IMG/VR virus record: IMGVR_UViG_2541047774_000008
Coordinates: 1 to 54,688 of that record
Source: a virus
Lineage: Duplodnaviria > Heunggongvirae > Uroviricota > Caudoviricetes
Length of the DNA stretch: 54,688 nt
Reading direction: 5' to 3' (one strand)
The notes under the pieces are model-generated. The model was given only the letters and a program-made list of their open reading frames with translations. It ran no database searches and was not told the origin of the DNA. Positions 9,580-53,797 of this stretch are shown here, one piece after another; positions within the stretch are counted from its first letter, which is position 1, and each line of letters starts with the position of its first letter. The translations under genes were made by a program, and so were the position numbers.

Positions 9580-9935
9580 CAGTGAGTGACCTCTTCAAAG
9601 GTACAGTTAAAATCGGTATACATGGTATTATCCGAAATGCTCCACTCCCTGCAGACAACCCGGACAGTCCTGTTGTGTTTTGGCGGACGCCACAAAAAAG
9701 CACGAATCCCGGCATGACGGGATAAAAAACTGTCCAGCGCGGCACGGGAATATTCATCTGTGACACGAAATACCGGTTTAAACGTTTTCAGATCCGCATT
9801 CAGACCACCAGCCCGTCGCTGTTCATATCCGTCACCAAACTTTACCGTAATAACTGATGGCTTTCGTGTCGTCTCCATCCCCTCACGGGGGATCCAGTTA
9901 AAAACTTCAGGCTCAGGCACTGTACAATCCTCCAT
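9579..9935 (-). CDS. M: minor tail protein M
   Basis: ORF 9579-9965 begins with TTG; first ATG at 9935 gives 118 aa whose KFGDGYEQR motif aligns with lambda gpM. Confidence 0.8.
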   Translation of the reverse strand: MEDCTVPEPEVFNWIPREGMETTRKPSVITVKFGDGYEQRRAGGLNADLKTFKPVFRVTDEYSRAALDSFLSRHAGIRAFLWRPPKHNRTVRVVCREWSISDNTMYTDFNCTFEEVTH

Positions 9936-12900
9936 CCCGACGCGATGACTGCATAATTGACACAACCCTGCTGTCGATCAGATCCACCAGTCCCCTGGCT
10001 GAGCGCGCATCTATCTCGCCATTGCTCCCTTGATTCTGAATGCTGATGTGATACACGGGAGAGTAAACAAATCCACCGCCACCATTCACATTTCCAATGG
10101 CCCTGACCCCAAGAGAGCCGTCCGCTGCCCGTGTCAGTGGCATGATTGCTTCAGGCCCGGCCTCGCCCATCAACCCGGCACCTTTCGCAAAAGCAAAATA
10201 CGTCGGTGTATCCACAATAGTGTTACTGTAAGCACTCAGATTTGCCGATGTGTAAACACCACCTTTTGCGTTTGCCACTGCCCCCGAAATCCATCCGCCG
10301 ACCGTACCAAGCCACCCTCCGGCACCGGAGAGTGATTTCAGTCCGTTAACAATGGCTGCATTCATCAGAATTTTTGAAACTTCCCGGAGAACTGAACTCC
10401 CCCAGTTCCTCCAGTCCACAACATTCCCGGCCAGTGCATCGGAAATATTTGATACCAGCCCGTCCATCGTGGAAACGACAGCATCTGCCGCCTGTGAAGC
10501 ATAATCGGTGGCACTGTCTGCCCAGTTGGTCAGTCCCTCCTGGAGTCCGGCATTCCAGTTATTACGTAAAGCATCGGCCTTTGCATAATAATCCTGCTGA
10601 TCGCTGAGACGCTCTTCCAGATATTTTTTATTCAGTTCTTTCTCCTGTTTCCACAGAGCTTCTTCAATTTCTCCGGCCTGATACTGTCTCAGCAGCTCGT
10701 TATTTTTCTGCTCAAACGCCTGCCGGATACTCCACATTTCCTGGAGTCGTTCACGCATCCGTGAGCCTTCACCATATCCCAGCAACTGCGCTTCGTCAGA
10801 TGCCCGGGCACTGGCATTACTGTCCGCCAGACTGCTCTCATACGCAGCAAGCTGCTCACGAATCTTTTTCTGGTCGATGAGTGCTGCATTCTGCAAAAGC
10901 GTTTTTTTCTGCGCTTCTGACAGGGTTGATAATTCGCCCTGACTGACCTGATATTTCATCTTAGCCAGTTCAGTATTCTGCCCTGCCAGTGCTATTTGTT
11001 CTTTTTGCTGTTTAATCAGCCGTTTATAAATATCTTCTGTTTTTTCCGCTTCGGTCTTTTTATGCGCTTTGGGTTTATTTGCCTGGTTATTTCGCCAGGC
11101 ATCCAGTGAGTTATTGATATAATTCTGTCTGGCTGTCTGATACGCCTCTCCCACAAAGCCGAGATCATCCGCAGCATAACCCAGGCGGGCACGCTCACGG
11201 GCTTCCCCCTTCAGGCGGGACAGAGCCAGTTCGCGCTCACTGTTATTCAGTGCGGTCTGCTGTTTATCATCCAGGGTTGCCTGTGGTAGCCGTAACGGTA
11301 CATTCACCAGCCCCTGTCGCTGCTGAAGTAATTCATTACCGAGCCCGAGAAGGCGATTAAACTCGGTATGCTGCCCATTCATGATCAACAGGGACTGATA
11401 CGCTTTGTTTTGTTCCGCGGCCTGTTGACGGATCAACGCCACCCGTCGCTCCTCCAGCCCGGCAAGCACATCCTGAATGGATTGCGCTTTGCCCTGCATT
11501 TGTGTGAGACGGGACTGTTCAACTGCCAGTTGATTTGTTGCTTCTGCAAGCCCTTCTGTGACAGTTTTTACCGACGTCATGTGGTTAATCATAAAACCGT
11601 TATCGGTTGTCCAGCCCGGGTTTGCCAGCACATACTGATAGCCAGCAATTTTTTCCTGTAAGGATTTAATCTTACTTTTCTGCTCGTCAATTAACCTGTT
11701 TTGCTCATCAAGTGCCTGCCGCGTCTTTTCCTCATTATCTGACGCTTCAGGAAGCGACATTGCCGACGTTTTCTGGCGAATTTCGTCGATTGTTGCGGCA
11801 TACTGGCGTGCAGATTCTCTGGCCTGCTCCTGATTCTGATACATCGTGTACCAGGCCGTCGCCCCCAGCATGACGAGTCCCGGCACACCACCAACCAACC
11901 CCAGCGCACCACTTAACAGACGACTCCCCACTGACGTGACAGTATTCAGCGTTGTCTGTGCCGCTGTTCTGGCCGCAATATTACGGGTAAGTGACGCCTG
12001 GGCAGCTGTCAGCTTCGCTTCTGCTGCGGCCTGCCTTTCGGTACCGCGAGCAGCAACAACCGCCTGTTGCGCACGATAAACCGCCGCACGCGCCCTGGCG
12101 GTTGCTATCTGTGTCCCCCGAAGTTGCGCTTCAGCAAGAGCCACTTCGTTTCTGGCTGCAGTAATTAATCCGGCAGTTGCAGATCCAGCAGACGACGCCA
12201 TATTGCCAAAATATCGGGCTACCCCGACGGCAACCAGTGCGCCAGCTGCAGCAGCCACGGTATCCATATTGTCTGCAACACCATTCAACACCCCGGTGAG
12301 TGTCTTTGTCACTCCGCTTGCCTCGTTCGCACCACCAACCCAGGCCATAAAGGCGTTTTCAACTTTGGTTGCAGAGGATGAAACAGTATCAGGCATTGCT
12401 GCATATTCATCACGCAACGCCCCAAGCTGACTAATCAGTGCAGGAACAACCTTATCGGCGGTCAGTTTTCCGTTATCCGCCATGGCCTTCAGATCCTTAC
12501 GGGCAACACCCATTCCCGCAGCCAGCGCACGAATAACACGATCGCCGTTCTCATTCACAGAGTTAAATTCTTCACCGCGCAGCACTCCCTGCGCCAGTGC
12601 CTGACTGAACTGCGTGATCACCGAACTGGCTTCTGCTGTACTGGCACCGGATAATTTCAGGCCCGTAGAGATCGCCTCGGTGACTTTCAGTACCTCCTCA
12701 GAACTGTAGCCATACTCCCGCATGGAAGCTGCAGAGCGGGCAAAAAGGCTGGCGTTATCAGAAAACGCCGTTCCCGTTCTCTGGCTGATTGCCATTAATT
12801 CACGTTGTGATACCTGAAAATCATCACTGGACTGTGAAGCCTGCTTCAGACGGGCATTTACTGAATTCCACTCATCGGCGAGAGAAATAAGATGACCGGT

Positions 12901-13146
12901 AGCAAAAGCTCCGGCAAATGCCCCCGCCATATTCAGTGCCGAAGATTTAGCTATATTTATCTGATCCGTCACTTCTGCCAGTGCACGCCGCATTTCACGG
13001 GATGCAGCAGCGGACTGCCGGCCTCCGTTCTGCATGGTACGGTAGTAATCCTGCCCCATACGCGAAGCCCGGGAGATCTCTGACTGGAATGACCGGGAAT
13101 TTGCCGAGATTTTAATAATCAGTTCACGTAATGTCGCCACACTCAT
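9913..13146 (-). CDS. H: tail tape measure protein
   Basis: 1077 aa, Ala/Gln-rich coiled-coil centre, C-terminal Gly-rich segment; located after the G/T chaperone pair. Confidence 0.9.
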   Translation of the reverse strand: MSVATLRELIIKISANSRSFQSEISRASRMGQDYYRTMQNGGRQSAAASREMRRALAEVTDQINIAKSSALNMAGAFAGAFATGHLISLADEWNSVNARLKQASQSSDDFQVSQRELMAISQRTGTAFSDNASLFARSAASMREYGYSSEEVLKVTEAISTGLKLSGASTAEASSVITQFSQALAQGVLRGEEFNSVNENGDRVIRALAAGMGVARKDLKAMADNGKLTADKVVPALISQLGALRDEYAAMPDTVSSSATKVENAFMAWVGGANEASGVTKTLTGVLNGVADNMDTVAAAAGALVAVGVARYFGNMASSAGSATAGLITAARNEVALAEAQLRGTQIATARARAAVYRAQQAVVAARGTERQAAAEAKLTAAQASLTRNIAARTAAQTTLNTVTSVGSRLLSGALGLVGGVPGLVMLGATAWYTMYQNQEQARESARQYAATIDEIRQKTSAMSLPEASDNEEKTRQALDEQNRLIDEQKSKIKSLQEKIAGYQYVLANPGWTTDNGFMINHMTSVKTVTEGLAEATNQLAVEQSRLTQMQGKAQSIQDVLAGLEERRVALIRQQAAEQNKAYQSLLIMNGQHTEFNRLLGLGNELLQQRQGLVNVPLRLPQATLDDKQQTALNNSERELALSRLKGEARERARLGYAADDLGFVGEAYQTARQNYINNSLDAWRNNQANKPKAHKKTEAEKTEDIYKRLIKQQKEQIALAGQNTELAKMKYQVSQGELSTLSEAQKKTLLQNAALIDQKKIREQLAAYESSLADSNASARASDEAQLLGYGEGSRMRERLQEMWSIRQAFEQKNNELLRQYQAGEIEEALWKQEKELNKKYLEERLSDQQDYYAKADALRNNWNAGLQEGLTNWADSATDYASQAADAVVSTMDGLVSNISDALAGNVVDWRNWGSSVLREVSKILMNAAIVNGLKSLSGAGGWLGTVGGWISGAVANAKGGVYTSANLSAYSNTIVDTPTYFAFAKGAGLMGEAGPEAIMPLTRAADGSLGVRAIGNVNGGGGFVYSPVYHISIQNQGSNGEIDARSARGLVDLIDSRVVSIMQSSRRDGGLYSA

Positions 13147-13185
13147 TCTCCGGACGAAAAAAACCGCCGAAGCGGTTATGTTGAC

Positions 13186-13476
13186 TCACTGAGACACTAT
13201 TAAAAGCGCGTTTTCCAGTCCGGCAAATGGATCTGAGACGCCTTCTGTCTGCTCTTGTTCCCACTGAAGAAGCGCATCATTCAGTGGGACTTTGACACCC
13301 TGCGCACCGTAAACCGCAGAAACTATCTGGGCAGCCCGGATATCAGCCCGCTCGTCACCCAGCGGGCTGAACCTGTCAAATTCTGCCCACATCATGATTT
13401 CTGATGCGGACATTTCCCGGCGTAACTCTGACAATGTGCGCCCCATCCTGAGCGCCAGCATCATCAGAAAACGCAT
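13186..13476 (-). CDS. T: tail assembly chaperone extension (gpT-like), expressed as a G-T fusion by -1 frameshift
   Basis: 96-aa ORF in the -1 frame relative to G, starting 14 nt after the G stop; open in the -1 frame from the slippery site. Confidence 0.7.
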   Translation of the reverse strand: MRFLMMLALRMGRTLSELRREMSASEIMMWAEFDRFSPLGDERADIRAAQIVSAVYGAQGVKVPLNDALLQWEQEQTEGVSDPFAGLENALLIVSQ

Positions 13477-13487
13477 CCCCGGAAGCG

Positions 13488-13874
13488 CTACTTTTTTTTA
13501 ACCTCGCCGGCATCACTGATCAGTTCCAGAGACTGCCGAAGAAGCCGCGCATGCACCGGGCCATACACGGCAATCACCTGTTCACGATCATCCTCTGAAA
13601 ATACAGGTTGCAGTCCGGTATCACACAGAACATCAATGAATAGTTCAACATCTGCCTCCAGATTTCGGCGGGCGCGCTCCGCAACGGATAACGGTGTCTC
13701 ATCATCTTTTGCTTTAACGATCTCCTGCCAGCGCAACCAGGCTTCTGCAGAAGGTTCCCGTAATACAACCGTTGCCCCTTCCCATTCAGGCACATCAACA
13801 GTTTTATGGCGAAACCCCGACATCGTTGCCAGTGCCAGATTGCGGATATTTTTAGTCATCACATCTATCCTCAT
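13488..13874 (-). CDS. G: tail assembly chaperone G
   Basis: 128 aa between the major tail protein and tape measure, ending GEVKKK at the slippery run. Confidence 0.8.
   Translation of the reverse strand: MRIDVMTKNIRNLALATMSGFRHKTVDVPEWEGATVVLREPSAEAWLRWQEIVKAKDDETPLSVAERARRNLEADVELFIDVLCDTGLQPVFSEDDREQVIAVYGPVHARLLRQSLELISDAGEVKKK
13491..13499 (-). other. -1 programmed ribosomal frameshift slippery site (A AAA AAG) at the end of G
   Basis: mRNA reads GUU AAA AAA AAG UAG; the heptamer A_AAA_AAG sits in the last codons of G, and the -1 frame continues ...KKVALPGMRFLMM into the T ORF. Confidence 0.75.
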
Positions 13875-14578
13875 TAACTGACGGTAACAGTGCAGGAAGT
13901 GGAGGTCACCTTGTTAACAGGGCTTGCTGAATCAGAAATCTCGCAGGTATACGCACCGGCATCACCTGATGCTGCTGATGCCTTACTGAATGTTGCCGCC
14001 GTCTGTCCGGAAACAGGAGAACTACCTTTCTTCCAGACATAAGAATAAGGCGGCACACCACCGGCAGCCTCAACCACCATTTCGAGTTTCGCTCCGGCAG
14101 AAACCTGCAGCGTGCTGTTTAAATCGACCTTCACTTTCAGCGGCTCTGTCGTCAGCACAGGTTTACCTTTCAGGCGCAGGGAAAACGTTGCAGCCACAAC
14201 ACCATTAGTTCCTGCAGACCAGGTATGCTGACGCACCTCTGCCATAAAGGTAAATCCGTTGCCTGACGGAAAAATAACTTTAAAGCCATACGTGGTGTCA
14301 TTGTCATAGGCACTGCGCAACGCGTTCTGGGCAGCATTGAGGTAAAAGTTGCCTGACATGGAAATCTCTGACGCGGCACCAAGGCCGTTAATATTTTCCT
14401 GCTCAACAGAACACAGCGTGGTGACATCAATATCCTGCTTTTGTCCTGCGGTAAACTGCACCTCTTTGATTGTACAGCTCAGGCCAAGATAGCTGGCAGA
14501 ATCCAGGGTTTCTGCTGTTACCGGTGCAGACGAAATCATAATTTTCGTCAGTTGCGAACGCTCAAAATTAGAGGACAT
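13874..14578 (-). CDS. V: major tail protein with C-terminal Ig-like domain
   Basis: ORF 13874-14629; ATG at 14578 (MSSNFERSQ...) preceded by AGGAGA; C-terminal ~80 aa looks like a Big_2/Ig-like domain. Confidence 0.9.
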   Translation of the reverse strand: MSSNFERSQLTKIMISSAPVTAETLDSASYLGLSCTIKEVQFTAGQKQDIDVTTLCSVEQENINGLGAASEISMSGNFYLNAAQNALRSAYDNDTTYGFKVIFPSGNGFTFMAEVRQHTWSAGTNGVVAATFSLRLKGKPVLTTEPLKVKVDLNSTLQVSAGAKLEMVVEAAGGVPPYSYVWKKGSSPVSGQTAATFSKASAASGDAGAYTCEISDSASPVNKVTSTSCTVTVS

Positions 14579-14637
14579 ACTCGTCTCCTGAAAATAAAAA
14601 ACCCGCCAGCGGCGGGTGGGTAAAATCATTAACGACC

Positions 14638-19611: not shown

Positions 19612-20358
19612 TTAAAGCGAACGGATGCCCACGCTGACCAGATGTTCAGACAGATCCAGCTCCGGTTCACCACCATTGACCAGCATCCGGCTCATTGCTG
19701 TAAACATCGCAACAGGGCCGTCGATTTTGGCTTCCAGCGTGGATTTATTCGGGAAGATATTGTCGTTTTTGTCCGGTTTTACCGTAACGTTAGACATCAT
19801 CCAGTTCATGACCGGATGATTGCTGTGATGGAAACGCCCGGCATAGACCAGTGATTCCGTTTCCTTCATGGCCTCTGACAGATTGCGAACCGTCTGCGGA
19901 ACCTCCACCAGCGGTATCCCTTCTTCAGCCAGTGCCAGGCTGAACTGCATCGCGCTCCACGGGTCAAATCCCAGTTCCCTGAGGTTTTCACCACCAATCC
20001 ATTCCAGTAAGTCACTTTTTATCTGAGCATGATCGATAACATCACCATCCGTCAGAATCAGCTTATCCATCTCCGCCCACTTCCGGTAAAGTTCTGCCTG
20101 CTGCCGCGAGCATCGTTCCAGCCGTCCTTCCGGAAGCCAGAATTTAAAATCGGCATGAACATGCCCGTTATCCGTTCGCCAGAGTTTTGCCGCCGCACAG
20201 ATATCAATCTTATGAGCAAGGTCAACGCCGACCCACATGGGATACGTTTTCAGCTCATGTCGTGGGGCAATGTATTCGCACTTCTCCCACTTAATCATGT
20301 CCATCCAGGCAGACTCTGCTGTTACCCACACATTCATGTGTTTGGTAAGAATATTTCA
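19612..20358 (-). pseudogene. 3' fragment of prophage terminase large subunit gene (nuclease domain), separated from its 5' part by the island
   Basis: 241-aa ORF (19612-20337) plus in-frame upstream codons to the stop at 20356-20358 (NILTKHMNVWVTAESAW...) align with the C-terminal half of the island TerL. Confidence 0.8.
20342..20348. repeat. left copy of 7-bp direct repeat TTGGTAA at the island boundary (putative att core)
   Basis: Identical heptamer at 35313-35319; in both copies the embedded ACC codon is in frame in its terL fragment. Confidence 0.6.
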
Positions 20359-20423
20359 AGTTTTTTAAAATCACCTGTATATCAATCATTTAACATGAAA
20401 AAACAGTCTTTATAAATCATCGA

Positions 20424-28988: not shown

Positions 28989-30404
28989 TTACAGTGGGCG
29001 CACGTCATCACCGTCAATAGCAATAACGCCATCACCTTCCAGCTTGTACAGCCAGCGCCGGAAGTGTTTCATCTCATACCCCAGCTTTTTCATATCATCG
29101 CGCAATAACGGGATAGTGCATTTATCGCTGCGCTGTGTGCGTGACCGGATACAGCCCCATAGTGCGGCGTGATTCTCCGTCTTGTTTCCGGCCTCCTCGA
29201 TGCGCTCCAGTTCAACGGGTGGGCGCGGTTTATCCACAACCACCAGCGACGTGATTAACTCCTTGTCAGCGTCGGTAAAAAGCTCCACCACACGTAAATC
29301 GTATGCAGCCTCTTTCAGTTCCTCCGCGTCCTTCATTTTGGTGCAGGAGATAACCAGGGCTTCACTGTCCGCACCTTCACGGCGAATACGGTATTCAGCA
29401 TCCAGAGATGCACGAAATGCACTGGAACCACGCGCTCCCTTTGTTTCATCCTTGCCGGAATGGTGAACCACCAGCACCGTGGCCCCTGTGCGTCGTTTCA
29501 GTTCGTCACATCCACGGATAAACGCTCCCATATCCCGCGCGTCATTTTCATCATTACCGCCAAAACAACGCGCCAGCGTATCCAGAATAATCATGCGTAC
29601 CGGTTTACCCGTTTCCCGTTCAACCTGGCGGGAAGCGATGACCATTTCATCGACATCAAGCGGGACTGCCGGAAAAATCGGGCGGTTTACCAGGTACAGA
29701 TTTTCCACCCGTTCATCATTAACGATTTCCCATGCCTTGATACGGCGGGGGACACCAATGCCACCTTCACCGACAACATACATCACCGAACCATGCGCCA
29801 CCCTGCGGCCTCCCCAGTGGCGACCCGTGGCAACATGACACGCCCAGGAACACGCGAGGAACGATTTATAGGAACCGCTCGCGCCGTATGTGCTACACAA
29901 TGAATTAGCCGGAATCACGCCCTTAACGACATAATCAAGCTGTGTGTCGTACCCTGCAGATCCAATGCTCATTGGTAGCGTGGTTTTTCGCTGGCTGTAT
30001 TGCTCGTCAGTAAGAATTTCCCCGCGCTCTGCCTGTTCGCGGATCCGTTGCAGGTAGTCGTGCCAGTTCTCCAGCTTCTGGCTGTGCATTCCCTCAGGGT
30101 AATAATTCGCATCCCGTACACCTGCCGCCGCCAGCTTTTGCCCGATGGCGTTAATATTTGACGGCTTGATGTGGCCTGCCTTGTACAGCCGGACACAATA
30201 GCGACCATCGTCGATAATTTTCAGGTCTGCCAGTTCGTCAAGCTGGCTGTCTCCCAGCCATACAGGCGGCACGTTGTCGCCAGCAAGTCGCCCGTCCTGC
30301 TCCTGCCACTGTTTCGCGTGCGCCCAGGCATCACTACCCGCAAAAATAATGACTTCGGTCATTTTGTCGTGCGGCTGTTTTTTTAAGTTCGGTGCCAGTT
30401 TCAT
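28989..30404 (-). CDS. replication protein, primase/helicase-like RecA-fold ATPase
   Basis: 471 aa; Walker A-like YGASGSYKS and Walker B-like MIILDTLARCFGGNDEND; ATG at 30404 overlaps the upstream stop. Confidence 0.75.
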   Translation of the reverse strand: MKLAPNLKKQPHDKMTEVIIFAGSDAWAHAKQWQEQDGRLAGDNVPPVWLGDSQLDELADLKIIDDGRYCVRLYKAGHIKPSNINAIGQKLAAAGVRDANYYPEGMHSQKLENWHDYLQRIREQAERGEILTDEQYSQRKTTLPMSIGSAGYDTQLDYVVKGVIPANSLCSTYGASGSYKSFLACSWACHVATGRHWGGRRVAHGSVMYVVGEGGIGVPRRIKAWEIVNDERVENLYLVNRPIFPAVPLDVDEMVIASRQVERETGKPVRMIILDTLARCFGGNDENDARDMGAFIRGCDELKRRTGATVLVVHHSGKDETKGARGSSAFRASLDAEYRIRREGADSEALVISCTKMKDAEELKEAAYDLRVVELFTDADKELITSLVVVDKPRPPVELERIEEAGNKTENHAALWGCIRSRTQRSDKCTIPLLRDDMKKLGYEMKHFRRWLYKLEGDGVIAIDGDDVRPL

Positions 30405-30700
30405 TTTTTACCCCTGAATGCGTTAATCATGTTTTTCATTTTCTGAATGTTTGCCCGTGCCTTTGCGTTGCTGGTGGGCTGTTTGTGTGGTGTGGCCTGT
30501 TCCAGAGAAAAATCACGCCGGAACTGATAAACAGGCATCACGCAGTCGTAGCTGTACCCATCACGGCGGTAAGTAACGCACCGTCCGGCAATACTTTTAA
30601 TCGTTACCGTGCCGCCGTAGTTATCCCGGAAAATATCGCCGGGGCGGATTTCAGGCCGAGCGGGGCCACTGGCAGTAAAGCCAGAATTTTTCTGTTTCAT
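30401..30700 (-). CDS. hypothetical protein (99 aa)
   Basis: ORF translationally coupled to rep. Confidence 0.45.
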   Translation of the reverse strand: MKQKNSGFTASGPARPEIRPGDIFRDNYGGTVTIKSIAGRCVTYRRDGYSYDCVMPVYQFRRDFSLEQATPHKQPTSNAKARANIQKMKNMINAFRGKK

Positions 30701-30730
30701 GGTTTTATTTTCCTGTCAGTGATTCCGGTT

Positions 30731-30904
30731 TTATTCCGGCGCGAATACAGGCTTCAGAAAAAAAGCCAGAGAACCAACAAACTCATCATTTCTAAGACGG
30801 CATTGTGATTTTACTTTCCCTTTATCCAGGAATATTAAAACGCGCCCTGTGTAATCTGATGGCACATTCAGCACGACAGGTAAGTGCGCTTCATGATTAT
30901 GCAT
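30731..30904 (-). CDS. hypothetical small protein (57 aa)
   Basis: Not in the ORF track (under 60 aa); ATG at 30904 preceded by GAGGGGG; translates MHNHEAHLPVVLNVPSDYTGRVLIFLDKGKVKSQCR... Confidence 0.3.
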   Translation of the reverse strand: MHNHEAHLPVVLNVPSDYTGRVLIFLDKGKVKSQCRLRNDEFVGSLAFFLKPVFAPE

Positions 30905-31365
30905 GGTTCACCCCCTCAGGGAATTTTCTTCTGTAACGCGCCTCTGCCACATATTCAGCATAGTCCGACGCAATAACGAGAATATCGCTGCCTGTTCCTG
31001 AATGCTCAGTGGTTCCAATTAAAAAACATGCGGCCTTTATCAGGTCATTAACAACCAGCAACGCATCACCCGCATCATCCGATACGCCATCAAATTCCTG
31101 TTTCAGGGCATTAAAACGATCATCACGCATAACCCCCCCCCCCATTTTCACAATCAGCAATCAGGATAGCCCTGGCCTCATTCAGTGCCATATCAGCACT
31201 AAATTGCATAACAGCCAGTGAGTGAGGAACGAAAGCCCCGGCATATTCTGTTTCGCTGGTAGCGTGCTTATGCGCCCTGTCTGCGATAACAGAAATATCA
31301 ATCAGCGCATCAATCAGTGTTTTGATGGCTTCGGCGGCTGCGTCCGGACGGGTGTCATTGCACAT
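30897..31365 (-). CDS. hypothetical gene split by a frameshift in an 11-nt homopolymer (ORFs 31123-31365 and 30897-31160)
   Basis: Upstream ORF ends ...ENGGGGYA and downstream begins MGGGVMRDD across C11 (plus strand) at 31133-31143; a 10-nt run would fuse them into about 165 aa. Confidence 0.5.
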
Positions 31366-31723
31366 GGCGCACCCCCTGACGAATACGGGCGGCGAATACC
31401 ATCACGCAGCCAGCCGGGGATTGCTGGCGTGCTTCCTGTTCGCTGGTGGCCTCAATGGTAATCACGCGCGGTTGTGCCGTGCTCAGGGCGATAAAACGCC
31501 AGATAAAATTGTTCTCGCATTTCTGAATAAACAGCGTGTTTTCTTCGCGCCCTTTCCATGTTGCCGAGATATAGCCCATGTCATTGAGCATCTCGCAGGC
31601 ATCCACCAGCGTATCAGCGGCTACGTGTACAGTGTTTTTACCGTCAGCCATGCAATCACGGTGCACCGCCAGGAAGGTGTATATAAATTTAGGGTGAGTT
31701 TGGGTATGCTGTGTTCCAGCCAT
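31355..31723 (-). CDS. hypothetical protein (122 aa)
   Basis: Codon-like 3' portion of the long 31355-32596 ORF; ATG at 31723 with GGAG RBS (MAGTQHTQTHPKFIY...). Confidence 0.5.
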   Translation of the reverse strand: MAGTQHTQTHPKFIYTFLAVHRDCMADGKNTVHVAADTLVDACEMLNDMGYISATWKGREENTLFIQKCENNFIWRFIALSTAQPRVITIEATSEQEARQQSPAGCVMVFAARIRQGVRHVQ

Positions 31724-31798
31724 AATCGTTACTCCAGTTAACGGTTTGGTTAGACGCCCTGCATGTGTTGCGAGCACTGCGGGGCGTCGCTCTTTTAG

Positions 31799-31844
31799 GT
31801 GTATTTCACCTTTGCTTTTTAATTTACTCACTGGTGAAATACAC
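31799..31844. promoter_or_regulatory. perfect 12-bp inverted repeat GTGTATTTCACC-N22-GGTGAAATACAC in the island divergent intergenic region (putative operator)
   Basis: Lies between minus-strand gene 31355-31723 and the plus-strand regulator at 31911. Confidence 0.5.
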
Positions 31845-31910
31845 TTCAAGCCTTTTTTTATCATTTTTTTTGCGTATACTGACATACACCAATTTTTAGG
31901 AGATCCAGAA

Positions 31911-32090
31911 ATGGCAACTGGTGCAAAGAACGCAAAATCACAAATGACAACTGTCAGAATCCCACATGAAGTAATGGATGATATTGAGCAACTTAAAGAA
32001 CCTGGCGAAAGTACCGCTGGTTTTTTAGTTACTGCCGCAAAAGGCGAGATCAAACGCCGCCAGCGTCGCAAGGCCAAAGAGCAGGAATAA
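31911..32090 (+). CDS. small DNA-binding regulator, possibly ribbon-helix-helix (59 aa)
   Basis: ATG at 31911 with AGGAG RBS; MATGAKNAKSQMTTVRIPHEVMDDIEQL... and basic C-terminus; divergent from the replication block. Confidence 0.5.
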   Translation: MATGAKNAKSQMTTVRIPHEVMDDIEQLKEPGESTAGFLVTAAKGEIKRRQRRKAKEQE

Positions 32091-32144
32091 CCATCACCAG
32101 CGCCGTGGTGTGAGGAATCACGGCGGCAACCATAGGAGTAAAAG

Positions 32145-32297
32145 ATGCCAAAACTTAAAAATTGTGCACTCTGTGCGATTGTTCTAATTGTCGCCGCCTT
32201 TATCTTAAAATCATGCTTCGAGAAAAAGAATCTTTGCGGAAGCAATGAAGGCGATATATTACGGCGTGCTTGCGATATAGAGTTGAAAAAAAGTTGA
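32145..32297 (+). CDS. small Cys-rich hydrophobic peptide (50 aa)
   Basis: Not in the ORF track; ATG at 32145 with AGGAG 5 nt upstream; MPKLKNCALCAIVLIVAAFILKSCFEKK...; hairpin with U-run downstream. Confidence 0.35.
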   Translation: MPKLKNCALCAIVLIVAAFILKSCFEKKNLCGSNEGDILRRACDIELKKS

Positions 32298-32740
32298 TCA
32301 TAACCTAACCGCGACAATGCCGTAGTTTCTGTAATTACAGAACAGCTCAGGATTTGCCCACCAGCCGTAAATGTGGCATTGTTGGTTATGCTCATGCGTT
32401 GGGGATAACGTGTAGCTTGTGTCGAGGGGCCACCGTAGCGGGTGGCCTTTGTTTTGCCTGTTATCCTGCAACTATGGTCATTTCGACCACGGTTGATATA
32501 ATCCCCCCGCACAGATTCATTTTTTGCGCAGTAGGTTAATTGTTCGCAAGGGCGCTCCGGTAACGGGGCGCTTTTTGTTTTTACCCACCAGCACAATAAA
32601 AATCTTCATTTTCCATTTTTGTAAAATTTCATGCTTTCCGGACGACTGGTCATATGTCATTTTTTAGCAGAAGATTTTGCCTTGCTGGTGGGTAGCTTCC
32701 CGGTCAACACGATGTACCGTATAATCAACACCGCGTGTGG

Positions 32741-33319
32741 TTACTGAATACGCTCACCAAAGTAAAACTCAGGCTGGTATTCACGTATCAGCCTTTTTTC
32801 TTCTTCCTCCAGCTCACGCTTTTTGCGCTTACATGCCTGTAGCTCCCTCCCCTTCTCACTAGCACTTATCTGGTATTGCTCTTTGCGGCGAGAAAAATCC
32901 TGTAATGCGCCCCACGGGATACCATAAGCCCCCGTTTTTCTGATACCCGGTATCACATTTCTGAATACCCAGTTACTGAAACGATGGGCGAACGTGCCAG
33001 GCGTCGTTGCTTTGCGGCTGCGGGCTATTAGTTTGTAGAAACCTGACTCAGAGATAATGCTCATATTCTGATTTCCTCCGGGGGTGTAAGTTAAATTTAC
33101 TCCCTTTTCATCATCATCAAGCATCTGCAACGCCGTACGCGAATTGGTCAGCTCCAGCGCAGCGCAAACATCCTTTGCAACAAACCACGGATCGCCGTTC
33201 AGATACACCACGCGAACGTTCACACCATCAAAGCGCAGAACGACCAGATCACGAATATCACAGAATTTTTTCACATGACGTGCGTCACCCTTGCCCGTCA
33301 CGGCAATATTTTTATTCAT
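32741..33319 (-). CDS. Bro-N domain protein (antirepressor-like)
   Basis: 192 aa; N-terminal LRFDGVNVRVVYLNGDPWFVAKDVCAALEL matches the Bro-N pattern; coiled-coil C-terminus. Confidence 0.7.
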   Translation of the reverse strand: MNKNIAVTGKGDARHVKKFCDIRDLVVLRFDGVNVRVVYLNGDPWFVAKDVCAALELTNSRTALQMLDDDEKGVNLTYTPGGNQNMSIISESGFYKLIARSRKATTPGTFAHRFSNWVFRNVIPGIRKTGAYGIPWGALQDFSRRKEQYQISASEKGRELQACKRKKRELEEEEKRLIREYQPEFYFGERIQ

Positions 33320-33376
33320 CGCTTTCTACCTCACATACAAAAAACCCCGCATTGCGTGGTGCGGGGTTGTCGGTAA

Positions 33377-33655
33377 TTACTTATTGGCGTTTTTGTATGG
33401 GCTGTTTACTTCCTTTACTCCTGGCGGATGCATAACCCACCAGAGCACATCAGAGAGCAACCAGGAAACAGACACTTTCCCTAAATGAGCACGAGCAGGA
33501 AATGCTCCCTCCTGTTCAAGTACCCAACGTCTGCTTCTTGAAAGCCCGGTACGATTGGCACACTCATGTTCGCGTATACGGCGATCATACGGTTCGCCAT
33601 GTTCTTTCAGAATCTGAATGCGTTCTTCGGGTGTAGGATAAATAAATTTTTGCAT
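33377..33655 (-). CDS. AlpA-like small DNA-binding protein
   Basis: ORF 33377-33685; start placed at the internal Met (MQKFIYPTPE...), coordinate by arithmetic; HTH-like segment; next to a second AlpA-like gene and int. Confidence 0.5.
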   Translation of the reverse strand: MQKFIYPTPEERIQILKEHGEPYDRRIREHECANRTGLSRSRRWVLEQEGAFPARAHLGKVSVSWLLSDVLWWVMHPPGVKEVNSPYKNANK

Positions 33656-33718
33656 AAAAATATCACCTATAAAAAAACCCGCCAAAAGACGGGTTGATTA
33701 TATCTCATTTAATTTAGT

Positions 33719-33952
33719 TCAGGGTTTCCATTCACCCTTTACCCATTCCAGCACCTCAGATAAGCGCCAGACTTTTGTTTGTGGGCCAATACATATTTTT
33801 CGTGGAAATTTTCCTTCCTTTTCAAGTAACGATCTGTGTCTCCTGCCAAGAGCGGTTAACCATGCACATTCATCTTCCTTAATCATCCTGTCGATTGTTT
33901 CATCATTTTCAAGTTCTTCACGCGTAACTATTTGAATCATTACTGTCACCAC
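33719..33952 (-). CDS. alpA: AlpA-family transcriptional regulator
   Basis: 77 aa with AlpA-like HTH (AWLTALGRRHRSLLEKEGKFP); immediately downstream of int. Confidence 0.65.
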   Translation of the reverse strand: MVTVMIQIVTREELENDETIDRMIKEDECAWLTALGRRHRSLLEKEGKFPRKICIGPQTKVWRLSEVLEWVKGEWKP

Positions 33953-35141
33953 TAATTTGCTTATTCAGATAGTCGTACCACCAGTTCATAGCTTCTTTTT
34001 TTCTGTCCATATACTGGCTTCTGTTATAAACCCCGGCAACACCGCCTAATGTGTGCCCAAGCAACTGTTCAACCACATTATGTTCAAAACCATGATCACT
34101 TAGTTTTGTGGCAAACACTCTTCGCATATCATGCGCCGTCCATTTCTCCGAGTGTTTCATCCTTTTCCATGTCTTACCGATAGTTACGCTTGCCGTACAC
34201 TGACGCATATCAAACCCAATCACATTTTCTTTGTTACCTGTTATTTTTTTTAACGTAACTAACCAGTTAAACATGCCATCAGGAATCGGTCTGATTATTT
34301 CCCTGCCATTTTTGCTATGATCAGCGGGAACGCGCCATAATTTCTTATCAAAATCCCACTCTACCCAGGACGACAGTAATACTTCTGACAGTCGACAACC
34401 AAAAACTACCAGGAAACGTAAAATAATTCGGTTTTCATATGATAATTCGTGATTGTCATAATCAGTATTAATACTTCGCCATAAATCTCTGATTTCATCA
34501 TCTGTTAAAACCCTGCTTCTTCGCGCAGACTTTTTTCCCACATCACAGACCTCAAGATCATCAATTTCATGACTAATCGCGTATTTTCTTACCCTACAAA
34601 ATTTAAGCGCCTGTTTTGATATACGCAACAAAGCTCCGGCCTGTACAGGTGCTACTTTTTTTATTTTGTCAAAACACTTGATCCACATAGATATAGAGCA
34701 ATCACTAAGTGGTACATGACCAATCACCGGATAAATATGTTTACCAAAGCACTGCCTGATATGTTCTGCTCCCCTACGCTTATCCATTGCATAATTATCA
34801 AGCCAGTATTCAAGTGCCTCACGAACGGTAACAGGTTGCAAGGTGGCTTCCCGTTCAATTTTTATCTGAATCCGTGGATCTCTGCCCTCCGCAAGCCAGG
34901 TTCGACACTGATCGCGCATCTCTCTCGCTGATTTGAGACTCAGATCAGGATATTTTCCAAGTGTCAGCCAGATGGGCGCGGTTCCCCTTCCCGCCAGTCT
35001 GTAAAAGAAAACAAAACTAACACATCCGTATTTACTGACCCGTACCGAAAGCCCGTTACCATCAGCGATGGTTTCCTGCCTCTCACTCCTGCGCCCAAGC
35101 AGGGAACGAAGTTTTTTATCGCTCAGTTTGTTTAGCGCCAT
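33918..35141 (-). CDS. int: tyrosine integrase, P4-like (island)
   Basis: ORF 33918-35177; first ATG at 35141 (MALNKLSDKKLRSLLG...); C-terminal catalytic region with R, H-x-x-R and Y; sits at the island right end. Confidence 0.85.
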   Translation of the reverse strand: MALNKLSDKKLRSLLGRRSERQETIADGNGLSVRVSKYGCVSFVFFYRLAGRGTAPIWLTLGKYPDLSLKSAREMRDQCRTWLAEGRDPRIQIKIEREATLQPVTVREALEYWLDNYAMDKRRGAEHIRQCFGKHIYPVIGHVPLSDCSISMWIKCFDKIKKVAPVQAGALLRISKQALKFCRVRKYAISHEIDDLEVCDVGKKSARRSRVLTDDEIRDLWRSINTDYDNHELSYENRIILRFLVVFGCRLSEVLLSSWVEWDFDKKLWRVPADHSKNGREIIRPIPDGMFNWLVTLKKITGNKENVIGFDMRQCTASVTIGKTWKRMKHSEKWTAHDMRRVFATKLSDHGFEHNVVEQLLGHTLGGVAGVYNRSQYMDRKKEAMNWWYDYLNKQISGDSNDSNSYA

Positions 35142-35161
35142 GTGATTTATAACCCGTTTTT

Positions 35162-35182
35162 GCAATACACAGTGCAATACAC
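35162..35182. repeat. 21-bp subterminal direct repeat GCAATACACAGTGCAATACAC (putative integrase arm-type site), right end
   Basis: Direct repeat of 20424-20444 with one mismatch; just upstream of the int start. Confidence 0.6.
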
Positions 35183-35312
35183 AAATGATGAAAACAGCCA
35201 GAACCTTCCAGAAAAAACAAAAACGACGAACAAGAAAAAATCTTTTTCTTTCATTTGGTTACTAAAAAAATCAGGACAGGTCGCACTGTTGTTACGGCGT
35301 GATGTTACTTTC

Positions 35313-35319
35313 TTGGTAA
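35313..35319. repeat. right copy of 7-bp direct repeat TTGGTAA at the island boundary (putative att core)
   Basis: Matches 20342-20348; lies within the FFTKK codons of the terL 5' fragment. Confidence 0.6.
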
Positions 35320-36340
35320 AAAAATTCACCCGCGCAGAGACCTGTTCTTTCGCTTTTTTCGCCAGGCGACGCAGATCATCCCAGCGTTTACAGATGCCCA
35401 GGCCGGGATTCGCTTTCTGCCAGACCGTTTCATCAAACGGATCATCTCCCTCATCGAGGGTGTAAATAATCGCAAAGTAGGAGTCGTCTTTTACAGCGCC
35501 CTCCACATCGCTGTTATAGCCACGCAATACCTTGATGGCGTAATCACGCTGCTCGTAACAAATCCCTTCCTTGTTAAACCCTGCCGTGGTGATACCAAAT
35601 AACAGGGACTGCAGGCGGGCACCGGTTGCCGTTTCCAGAACGTCCCACACGTCGCGGGTTTTATGTGCATGCAGCTCATCAATAATGGCGCAGTGGATGT
35701 TCAGACCATCCAGGTTGTTTGCATCCGAGGAAAGCGGTTCAAATTTTGATGCGCTCTGCTCCTGGTAAATCGCCAGCTTGTTGAAATCAAACAACCGCCC
35801 GAGTGTCGACCGGGCTTTTCTGACCATATTTTTGGCGTCTTCAAACACAATTCTGGCCTGGTCACGCGTGGTGGCGGCTGAATACACCTCAGCACCGCCT
35901 TCACCATCTGCCCCCGTCATATACAGGCCGATACCCGATGACAGAGTTGATTTTGCGTTTTTACGGGCGACTTCGTTGTACGCCGTCCGGAACCGGCGCA
36001 CCATCACCGGACGTCCGCTGCCATCGCTGCGCATGACAACTTCCCCGGTCTCTTCATTCACCAGCGGAATGACAAAACCAAAAATATTAATGAGGATAAA
36101 TACATGCCAGTCCATCAGTTCAATGGGCTGGCCTGCCAGCGCCCCTTTTACATGAGGCACAAATTTGTAGAAATTCAGGATGTGCTGCGCACGGGGTTCA
36201 CTGAAATAAATCCCCCGCTCTTCGCCGTACTTCAGATCATCAAGAAAACGCTGGCAGGCCAAGCGGACAAATTCGCCAGCAACAATTTCTCCTGCGACAA
36301 CACGTTCGGCGTAGCGGATCCCGTCAGCCACTTTTGCCAT
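35313..36340 (-). pseudogene. 5' fragment of prophage terminase large subunit gene (ATPase domain), separated from its 3' part by the island
   Basis: ORF 35147-36340; Walker A-like EVARKNAKST and Walker B-like AIIDELHAH; similarity to the island TerL stops at ...ARVNFFTKK, after which the frame runs into island DNA. Confidence 0.8.
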
Positions 36341-40317: not shown

Positions 40318-40392
<75 letters not shown>

Positions 40393-40395
40393 ATA

Positions 40396-40471
<76 letters not shown>

Positions 40472-40473
40472 AC

Positions 40474-40550
40474 TGGACCGCCACCGGGGACTCGAACCTC
40501 GCACACTCAACTTAAAGGGTTGACGCTCTTTCCTGATGAGCTAGTGGCGG
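40474..40550 (-). tRNA. atypical tRNA-like gene (anticodon loop CCUUUAA, possibly Lys-UUU-like)
   Basis: 77 nt; acceptor CCGCCAC/GTGGCGG, D-stem GCTC/GAGC, T-loop TTCGAGT, CCA encoded; C at position 33 and one A-C mismatch in the T-stem. Confidence 0.5.
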
Positions 40551-40551
40551 C

Positions 40552-40627
40552 TGGTGGCCCTTGCTGGATTTGAACCAGCGACCTGGCGATTATGAGTCGC
40601 TCGCTCTCACCACTGAGCTAAAGGGCC
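40552..40627 (-). tRNA. tRNA with CAU anticodon (Ile2/Met type)
   Basis: 76-nt cloverleaf: acceptor GGCCCTT/AAGGGCC, anticodon loop CUCAUAA, T-loop TTCAAAT, CCA encoded. Confidence 0.75.
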
Positions 40628-44041: not shown

Positions 44042-44197
44042 TTACTCCTCAGGTTCGTAAGCTGTGAAGACAGCGACCTCCGTCTGGCCAGTTCGGATTC
44101 GTACCTCGCAGAGGTCTTTCCTCGTTACCAGTGCCGTCACAATGACGGTTAAACAGATGACGATCAGGGCGATTAACATCGCCTTTTGCTGCTTCAT
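44042..44197 (-). CDS. hokD: Hok/Gef-family type I toxin
   Basis: ORF 44042-44254; ATG at 44197 gives 51 aa MKQQKAMLIALIVICLTVIVTALVTRKDLCEVRIRTGQTEVAVFTAYEPEE, preceded by AGGAG. Confidence 0.8.
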   Translation of the reverse strand: MKQQKAMLIALIVICLTVIVTALVTRKDLCEVRIRTGQTEVAVFTAYEPEE

Positions 44198-44434
44198 AGC
44201 CTGCTTCTCCTTGCCTTTCGGCACGTAAGAGGCTAACCTAGATTTGCCGTTCATAGATTGAGCCTCAGATTAATGTTAAGCGTCTTGCCGGACGCGTAAT
44301 GTTAACTGGGGCTTTTCTCTATCTGCCTTTCAGTGTTCATGCCTGAGACAGATAGCCTCAAGCACCCGCAGCCATTCTACTTAACTCACGTCACCTCGCC
44401 AATATGAAATCAATCAGAAAGGTGATCCATAAAA

Positions 44435-49229: not shown

Positions 49230-49287
49230 TTTCTGGTGACGTTTGGCGGTATCAGTTTTACTCCGTGACTGCTCTGCCGCCCTTTTT
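49230..49287 (+). ncRNA. dicF: DicF small RNA
   Basis: Sequence TTTCTGGTGACGTTTGGCGGTATCAGTTTTACTCCGTGACTGCTCTGCCGCCCTTTTT matches DicF as I recall it, with a 3' GC stem and U-run, between ydfC and dicB. Confidence 0.75.
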
Positions 49288-53707: not shown

Positions 53708-53797
53708 TGGCGGAGAGAGGGGGATTTGAACCCCCGGTGGAGTTGCCCCCACTCCGGTTTTCGAGACCGGTCCGTTCAGCCGCTCCGGCATCTCTCC
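53708..53797 (-). tRNA. serU: tRNA-Ser (anticodon CGA)
   Basis: 90-nt cloverleaf with long variable arm; acceptor GGAGAGA/TCTCTCC, anticodon loop CUCGAAA, CCA encoded; 3' end faces the integrase. Confidence 0.9.

Follow-up and report, generated by a model that had tools for sequence, protein, structure and literature searches.

A predicted −1 frameshift on an A_AAA_AAG heptamer links the tail assembly chaperone genes G and T of a lambdoid Escherichia coli prophage

Two adjacent minus-strand genes, G and T, of a caudoviral sequence of 54,688 nt (IMG/VR record IMGVR_UViG_2541047774_000008; the whole stretch that was analysed is hereafter called the window) very probably form a tail assembly chaperone pair in which a lambda-type −1 ribosomal frameshift yields a G–T fusion at a low level. 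The host context of the pair is a lambdoid E. coli prophage that combines HK97-type head genes with lambda-type tail genes. The features considered in this analysis are the following, in the order in which they occur on the minus strand:

13874..14578, minus strand: major tail protein with a C-terminal Ig-like domain (phrog_158, E 1e-109; Ig_2, Ig_3; start from RefSeq)
13488..13859, minus strand: gene G, HK97-type tail assembly chaperone, 123 aa (PF06222, phrog_344, 2OB9, RefSeq WP_000164661.1)
13186..13859, minus strand: predicted GT fusion, 224 aa, obtained by translation; both Pfam domains match the fused sequence
13498..13500, minus strand: UAA overlapping GUU-AAA, which closes the −1 (T) frame just ahead of the heptamer
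13492-13499, minus strand: A8 tract (direct sequence reading)
13491..13497, minus strand: A_AAA_AAG, the slippery heptamer, in frame with G and made up of the 3′-terminal 7 nt of the A8-G run (direct sequence reading)
13186..13491, minus strand: T-domain coding sequence in the −1 frame, first post-shift codon GUA at 13491-13489
13488..13490, minus strand: UAG stop of the G frame, directly 3′ of the heptamer
13384..13484, minus strand: predicted RNA hairpins, hairpin 1 at about 13484-13415, 6 nt past the heptamer, and hairpin 2 at about 13412-13384
13186-13476, minus strand: annotated free-standing T ORF, 96 aa, ATG at 13476 (PF06223)
13155..13177, minus strand: terminator-like hairpin with a T-run, in the gap that separates the end of T (stop at 13186) from the start of the tape-measure gene (13146)
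9913..13146, minus strand: tail length tape measure protein (PF06120, HK97 TLTM, E 1e-93; TMP_3; Tape_meas_lam_C)

On the minus strand, the 3′ end of G reads GCC GGC GAG GTT AAA AAA AAG TAG, which confirms the ending GUU AAA AAA AAG UAG given in the preliminary description and places the heptamer at 13497-13491 and the stop at 13490-13488. The same description had put the start of T 14 nt later in the −1 frame, which corresponds to the ATG at 13476, 11 nt past the G stop, and it had taken the −1 frame to be open from the heptamer onwards, as is indeed the case from 13497 to 13189. Because the UAA at 13500..13498 closes the −1 frame on the upstream side, the shift is confined to 7 nt, and the overlap of the G and T frames consists only of the slippery run itself. 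Translation of the T frame from 13500 to 13186 gives a stop, followed by KKVALPGMRFLMMLALRMGRTLSEL and, at the far end, by SQ and the terminal stop. When the −1 shift is introduced at the heptamer, the predicted fusion junction reads ...AGEVKKK/VALPGMRFLMM..., with the stroke marking the shift, and the junction-spanning peptide of the predicted GT fusion is EVKKKVALPGMR.

The longest ORF for G starts at 13874 and comprises 128 aa. The start codon is more likely the ATG at 13859, which is preceded by a GAGGA 8 nt upstream and is also the G start in RefSeq and in the phage records; the Pfam match begins at residue 6. As a bare string, the heptamer is not rare in the window, with 25 copies of AAAAAAG on both strands of the 54.7 kb compared to 13.4 expected. 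When the reading frame is considered, approximately 3,300 structural-gene codons contain a single in-frame A_AAA_AAG, and this copy corresponds to codons 127-128 of the 128-codon G ORF, within the 7-nt overlap.

The domain searches assigned both genes to families of tail assembly proteins. G matched PF06222 (Phage_TAC_1) over profile positions 1-124 of 124 (E 2.8e-58, 195.7 bits, cut-off 25), as well as phrog_344, annotated as tail assembly chaperone, and the HK97 tail assembly chaperone in the PDB (2OB9, E 4.6e-49). T matched PF06223 (Phage_tail_T, Minor tail protein T; E 3.1e-19, 69.6 bits, cut-off 25.9). A search of NCBIfam gave no match for G or T, and the profile phrog_14766 (tail protein), with 224 positions, spans G and T as a single protein. 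Read along the minus strand, the major tail gene comes first, then G, T, and the tape-measure gene. Terminator-like hairpins were observed on both sides of the major tail gene and ahead of the tape-measure gene; rho-independent terminators are annotated at the equivalent position in HK446, and a similar hairpin is visible in the Sakai prophage Sp9. The module is 97–99% identical to that of the E. coli phages Evi, phi467, and several vB_Eco phages. Of 5426 complete E. coli genomes, 902 carry the module, and in these PGAP names the two parts as separate genes, namely 'phage tail assembly chaperone' and 'phage tail assembly protein T'.

Elsewhere in the prophage, several features of the genome organization were recorded as side observations. 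The terL gene is split into an N-terminal part at 36340-35313 and a C-terminal part at 20355-19612, as determined by blastn against the intact terL of strain VTB97585v. The insert between them, 14.97 kb in length, carries a tyrosine integrase beside the junction, together with genes encoding an AAA_25 protein, a capsid protein, a prohead protease, a portal protein, TerS, and its own TerL, and no tail genes were found within it. An imperfect 14-nt core is duplicated at the two insert junctions, as TTGGTAAGAATATT and TTGGTAAAAAAATT, while a 21-nt direct repeat was discarded as the insert boundary, since excision at that repeat did not restore terL. From its gene content, the insert looks like a capsid-forming phage-inducible chromosomal island (PICI), a class of elements with a median size of 14 kb that hijack only tails (PMC10085698). 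The junction between int and terL was found in 36 complete E. coli genomes. Additionally, a tRNA cluster (Gly-Thr-Lys(UUU)-Met) is situated between Q and the lysis genes; the tRNA-Lys of this cluster has C in place of U at position 33 and is about 80–84% identical to the argN tRNA-Arg of Stx phages.

When compared to relatives, the G/T junction showed a conserved core within variable surroundings. A first comparison covered eight diverse homologues; a larger set consisted of 80 loci, each from a different GTDB species, retrieved with the T-domain alignment. All 80 species-level relatives have a G-like ORF with T in the −1 frame to it. Where the two frames overlap, the slip motif was A_AAA_AAG at 48 loci, G_GGA_AAG at five, and A_AAA_AAC at four, while the remaining 23 had only the A_AAG tetramer, reading GAA AAG or GCA AAG. 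In an alignment of 95 distinct homologous junctions, the A_AAG core was invariant and the flanking G codons were variable. The final slip codon was AAG in 76 of the 80 relatives and AAC in four, and the synonymous AAA was found in none (0/80), although AAA is the commoner lysine codon (101 AAA versus 54 AAG in the structural genes of the prophage); this indicates selection at the nucleotide level. A stop codon stands directly 3′ of the slip motif in 51 of the 80 relatives (64%). The preliminary description had regarded the site as the conserved tail-chaperone frameshift of long-tailed phages, a view supported by the synteny, the Pfam families, the uniform −1 arrangement, and the in-frame heptamer. 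It had also set the heptamer apart from the G_GGA_AAG of lambda, which is correct; yet the motif is not unusual, being the majority motif of the HK97-type G family (60% of the loci).

Other explanations of the arrangement were weighed against these results. It is extremely improbable that the juxtaposition arose by chance and that the motif has no role in a decayed or non-functional prophage remnant. The break in terL caused by the 15-kb insertion may mean that the phage is defective, and the window contains many copies of the bare heptamer, but G, T, and all the neighbouring tail genes are intact, and the junction is both identical in the isolated phages Evi, phi467, and vB_Eco-606R7 and conserved in the 80 species-level relatives. 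Very unlikely, too, is a scheme in which T is made alone from the ATG at 13476, either by independent initiation or by termination and reinitiation after the G stop, the heptamer being incidental. An ATG is present at this place in the clade of the window and in 22 of the 80 relatives, from which some reinitiation product could arise, and RefSeq and the phage records list a separate T of 96 aa. Such separate annotations are, however, the usual output of ORF-based pipelines. The ATG of the window has no usable Shine–Dalgarno (SD) sequence, since a GGGG directly abuts it, and in 58 of the 80 relatives the stretch from the slip site to the conserved FxM motif is devoid of ATG, GTG, and TTG; in the Sakai prophage Sp9, the codon homologous to the T ATG of the window is ATT. 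Moreover, the T frame is conserved from the slip site onwards in the pattern K-K-V-x-x-P-x-x-x-F-L-M-x-L-A-L-R-x-G, with Pro, Phe, Met, and LALR invariant, and both the conserved K-K-V and the invariant Pro are encoded upstream of the ATG at 13476. Because conservation begins upstream of the ATG and most relatives lack a start codon there, T is, as far as these comparisons indicate, not a free-standing gene in the HK97-type G/T family. The invariance of the slip motif at the nucleotide level also argues against an incidental heptamer.

The A8 tract raises the question of transcriptional slippage, whereby the polymerase would add one A to give A9 transcripts encoding an identical protein (…VKKKVALPG…). 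As the main route to the fusion, this is quite unlikely. Programmed transcriptional realignment has been ascribed to runs of more than seven A residues, and the reporter cassettes of Antonov et al. with A7, A9, and A11 gave 10, 40, and 63%, respectively (PMC3711429). The tract in our window, at A8, stands at the lower edge of the cited slippage lengths, and among the 62 loci of its clade A8 was present in 58, A7 in two (L091 and L135), and A9 in two. In the A9 variants, found in two public assemblies, the DNA itself encodes an in-frame fusion, which suggests that the tract is unstable in length. These two loci (L172 from Logan ERR13868054 and L173 from ENA ERZ27292621) surfaced through a called protein equal to the exact 224-aa fusion, so that their ascertainment is biased, and a homopolymer sequencing error is a trivial explanation for them. 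The wider family, however, points to the ribosome. The run is A7 at 37, A6 at six, and A3-4 at 27 of the 80 loci, lengths at which polymerase slippage should be negligible, and the arrangement is retained. Since 70 of the 80 relatives thus have A3–A7, it is not run length that has been conserved; the invariant element is A_AAG as read in the ribosomal frame, which is a translational constraint, and the single tRNA-Lys of E. coli makes A_AAG intrinsically shifty. Polymerase slippage would therefore be a minor contributor at most.

With regard to elements that could stimulate a ribosomal shift, no SD stimulator was found upstream of the heptamer at a stimulatory distance. The sole SD-like sequence, GAGG, ends 4 nt before the heptamer and was rejected on spacing, considering the range of 6–17 nt upstream used by Sharma et al. 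(PMC4066793). Downstream, the scan for a structure that the preliminary description had suggested gave a divided result. In the window, the RNA is predicted to fold into a long irregular hairpin beginning 6 nt past the heptamer and followed by the second one, with a minimum free energy of −48.2 kcal/mol and a z-score of −3.66 against dinucleotide shuffles. Compared to synonymous-codon resampling of the T frame, the z-score was −2.84 over 40 codons and −1.84 over 25 codons, and two of 101 background windows from other genes were as extreme. Across the homologues, on the other hand, RNAalifold returned no pairs and no consensus structure downstream of the slip site. The fold of the window, when imposed on 94 distinct homologues, had 62.7% of its cells paired (40.6% in the basal helix), and the helix that is retained best, GCGCUC/GGGCGC, reflects no more than the coding of the invariant ALRxGR. 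On these grounds, a stimulatory structure common to the whole family was rejected for the region past the heptamer, and a hairpin specific to the clade of the window is a possible stimulator according to the folding predictions. In the lacZ reporter of Sharma et al. 2014, the bare AAAAAAG without stimulators apparently shifted at about 0.3%, and the same heptamer at 4.3% with the IS911 stimulators and at 39% with those of IS3, values for which the order of the columns was inferred (PMC4066793). Given such a low rate for the bare heptamer, contextual help is likely if the rate here amounts to a few per cent.

Under the lambda-type frameshift that we favour, the majority of ribosomes would translate G (123 aa) and stop at the UAG, and a few per cent would slip back by one nucleotide on A_AAA_AAG. 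The slip could occur with tRNA-Lys(UUU) in both the P and the A sites, or with the P-site tRNA-Lys moving from AAG to AAA while a slowly decoded UAG occupies the A site; the sole tRNA-Lys of E. coli pairs weakly with AAG (PMC5009743). After the slip, the ribosome would read the −1 frame as GUA GCG CUU and so on, producing the 224-aa G–T fusion. The same protein (…GEVKKK-VALPG…) results from a dual slip, from a P-site slip, or from an A added by the polymerase. If the lambda model applies, the tape-measure protein would be coated by the G part of the two products, and the T part of the rare fusion would recruit the major tail protein. We infer that what counts in tail assembly is the G:GT ratio, which would be fixed by the slip frequency. 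The stop abutting the slip motif is compatible with a 'shifty stop' contribution and equally with mere economy. It is conceivable, albeit unlikely, that the G:GT ratio is set by a composite of the shifty stop, polymerase slippage on the A8 tract, and heritable changes in tract length. An A9 variant would then make an in-frame G–T fusion constitutively, a further contribution might come from the clade-specific hairpin 6 nt past the heptamer, and changes in tract length would switch tail production off and on, which would be relevant to the tail-stealing satellite in the same prophage.

The frameshift proposed here has well-described counterparts. In phage lambda, the G:GT ratio is 30:1, G binds the tape measure protein, and T binds the major tail protein (Atkins et al. 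2016, PMC5009743, which summarises Levin, Hendrix & Casjens 1993 and Xu, Hendrix & Duda 2004, 2013, 2014). As in the window, the lambda pair is flanked by the major tail gene and the tape-measure gene, T carries the PF06223 domain and is read in the −1 frame, the heptamer used for the slip ends in A_AAG and is located close to the 3′ terminus of G, and a low level of fusion is expected. The lambda paradigm envisages a small, constant share of fusion, about 3–7%, on which tail assembly would depend. The two differ in the heptamer, A_AAA_AAG in the window and G_GGA_AAG in lambda; in the G family, which in the window is the HK97-type PF06222 and not that of lambda gpG; and in the position of the stop, which in the window abuts the heptamer and leaves a frame overlap of only 7 nt. 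HK97, with gp13 (2OB9) and gp14 (GT), and HK446 share the G family, the T family, and the synteny of the window, and the shift occurs at the same position relative to the xFLMxLALRxGRT motif. The G protein of HK446 is about 64% identical to that of the window, and the annotation of this phage, from the Hendrix collection, joins the homologous genes into one CDS, 'similar to HK97 gp14'. The HK97/HK446 clade has CGG GAA AAG, in which only the A_AAG tetramer is canonical, and G runs for five codons beyond the site; in contrast, the heptamer of the window is fully canonical and is immediately followed by UAG.

A closer match in sequence is the pair ECs1801/ECs1802 of prophage Sp9 in E. coli O157:H7 Sakai, whose G is 68% identical to that of the window and in which A_AAA_AAG is likewise followed by UAG. 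Sp9 ends in AGA AAA AAG TAG (A6) and has no ATG in the T frame, whereas the window has AAA AAA AAG (A8) and an ATG. ECs1801, as 'tail assembly chaperone', represents the cluster A_AAA_AAG_25 of 53 prophage genes (Sharma et al. 2014, PMC4066793, Table S4), which is marked [true], meaning that −1 programmed ribosomal frameshifting (PRF) 'can be safely inferred', with SD entered as 'N', a hairpin predicted, and no reduced synonymous variability (PMC4066793). Furthermore, frameshifting of 6% and 7% was reported in E. coli for two genes of a GeneTack cluster of 41 HK97-like 'phage tail assembly chaperone' members (Antonov et al. 2013, PMC3711429). Outside tail modules, the E. coli dnaX gene (gamma/tau) shifts on A_AAA_AAG as well, and there too the heptamer is read by the sole tRNA-Lys(UUU). 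The dnaX shift, of about 50%, is accompanied by an SD-like stimulator located 10 nt before the heptamer and by a stable hairpin 6 nt beyond it. The window differs from it in having neither an SD at a stimulatory distance nor a conserved hairpin, and in that the shift would give an extended product instead of a truncated one.

The element type, the family, and the heptamer have all been described previously, and the understanding of the mechanism is unchanged by this analysis. Its value is practical, as RefSeq/PGAP and most phage records split G and T, so that the 224-aa GT product is missing from them, and the family-wide tally of slip motifs may serve as a reference for frameshift predictors.

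The slip site of the G/T pair was found to vary among relatives. The canonical heptamer was missing from some clades of the G family, namely the phages HK446 (L005) and Klebsiella phage ST13-OXA48phi12.4 (L006) and 23 of the 80 G/T loci taken from different GTDB species (L011-L090), in which the A_AAG tetramer alone was retained. The slip region reads CGG GAA AAG in HK97-like phages, while the Klebsiella and Pantoea types carry GCA AAG followed by a stop codon. These sequences suggest that slippage of a single tRNA, either in the A site or in the P site adjoining the stop, would be enough in the clades without the canonical heptamer.

The length of the homopolymer also varied among public assemblies, reflecting either real mutants or sequencing errors. 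An A9 tract was present in Logan ERR13868054 (L172:1855-1874) and ENA ERZ27292621 (L173:1151-1170), where it places G and T in frame and encodes the same 224-aa G-T fusion that the frameshift is predicted to make. Among the variant loci (L025, L091, L135, L172, and L173), A9 was also identified in a relative from Ca. Symbiopectobacterium endolongispinus, and an A7 tract was carried by two IMG/VR contigs.

The prophage bears a tRNA cluster located between the Q antiterminator on one side and the lysis genes on the other:

tRNA cluster of the prophage
40318-40627, - strand: tRNA-Gly(tcc), tRNA-Thr(tgt), tRNA-Lys(ttt), tRNA-Met(cat)

Lys is encoded by each of the two slip-site codons at the G/T junction, so the tRNA-Lys(UUU) of this cluster could in principle influence the shift. 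Its Rfam score is low (44 bits), and its anticodon loop, CCUUUAA, has C at position 33, where U is near-universal. It shares about 80-84% identity with the argN tRNA-Arg of Stx phages.

Around the G/T pair, two terminator-like hairpins and the major tail gene were located as follows:

Hairpins and major tail gene
13155-13177, - strand: terminator-like hairpin with T-run, between T and the tape-measure gene
14601-14617, - strand: terminator-like hairpin with T-run, just upstream of the likely start of the major tail gene (14578)
13874-14629, - strand: major tail protein, longest ORF, 251 aa

Rho-independent terminators are annotated in HK446 at the positions corresponding to both hairpins, and such structures within the late operon may tune gene dosage through partial termination. 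The longest major tail ORF begins 17 codons 5' of the RefSeq start (14578); because it spans the terminator-like hairpin, the shorter form is more likely than the 251-aa form. The C-terminal end of the protein carries an Ig-like domain, as is common in siphophage tail tube proteins.

Towards its right end, the window contains three further features:

Features near the right end
44192-44367, - strand: sok antitoxin RNA (hok/sok type)
49231-49282, + strand: DicF sRNA
53708-53797, - strand: tRNA-Ser(cga)

A hokD gene is annotated in a related strain. Features of this kind are typical of early regions in Qin/Rac-like lambdoid prophages, and here they possibly mark the attachment site.

The terL gene of the prophage is interrupted by a 14.97-kb integrative element, the terL parts and the insert together spanning 19612-36340. 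A 14-nt core is imperfectly duplicated at the insert ends (TTGGTAAGAATATT at 20342-20355 and TTGGTAAAAAAATT at 35313-35326).

Insert in terL
about 20356-35312: whole insert
20868-22529: the insert's own TerL
22513-23010: TerS
23890-25323: portal
25106-25882: prohead protease
25716-26861: capsid
28989-30404: AAA_25 protein
33918-35177: tyrosine integrase

Tail genes were absent from the gene content of the insert, which looks like a capsid-forming PICI satellite. When 5426 complete genomes of E. coli were searched, 36 carried the int/terL junction. The PICI-like insert occupies the terminase gene of the same phage whose tails such a satellite would need.
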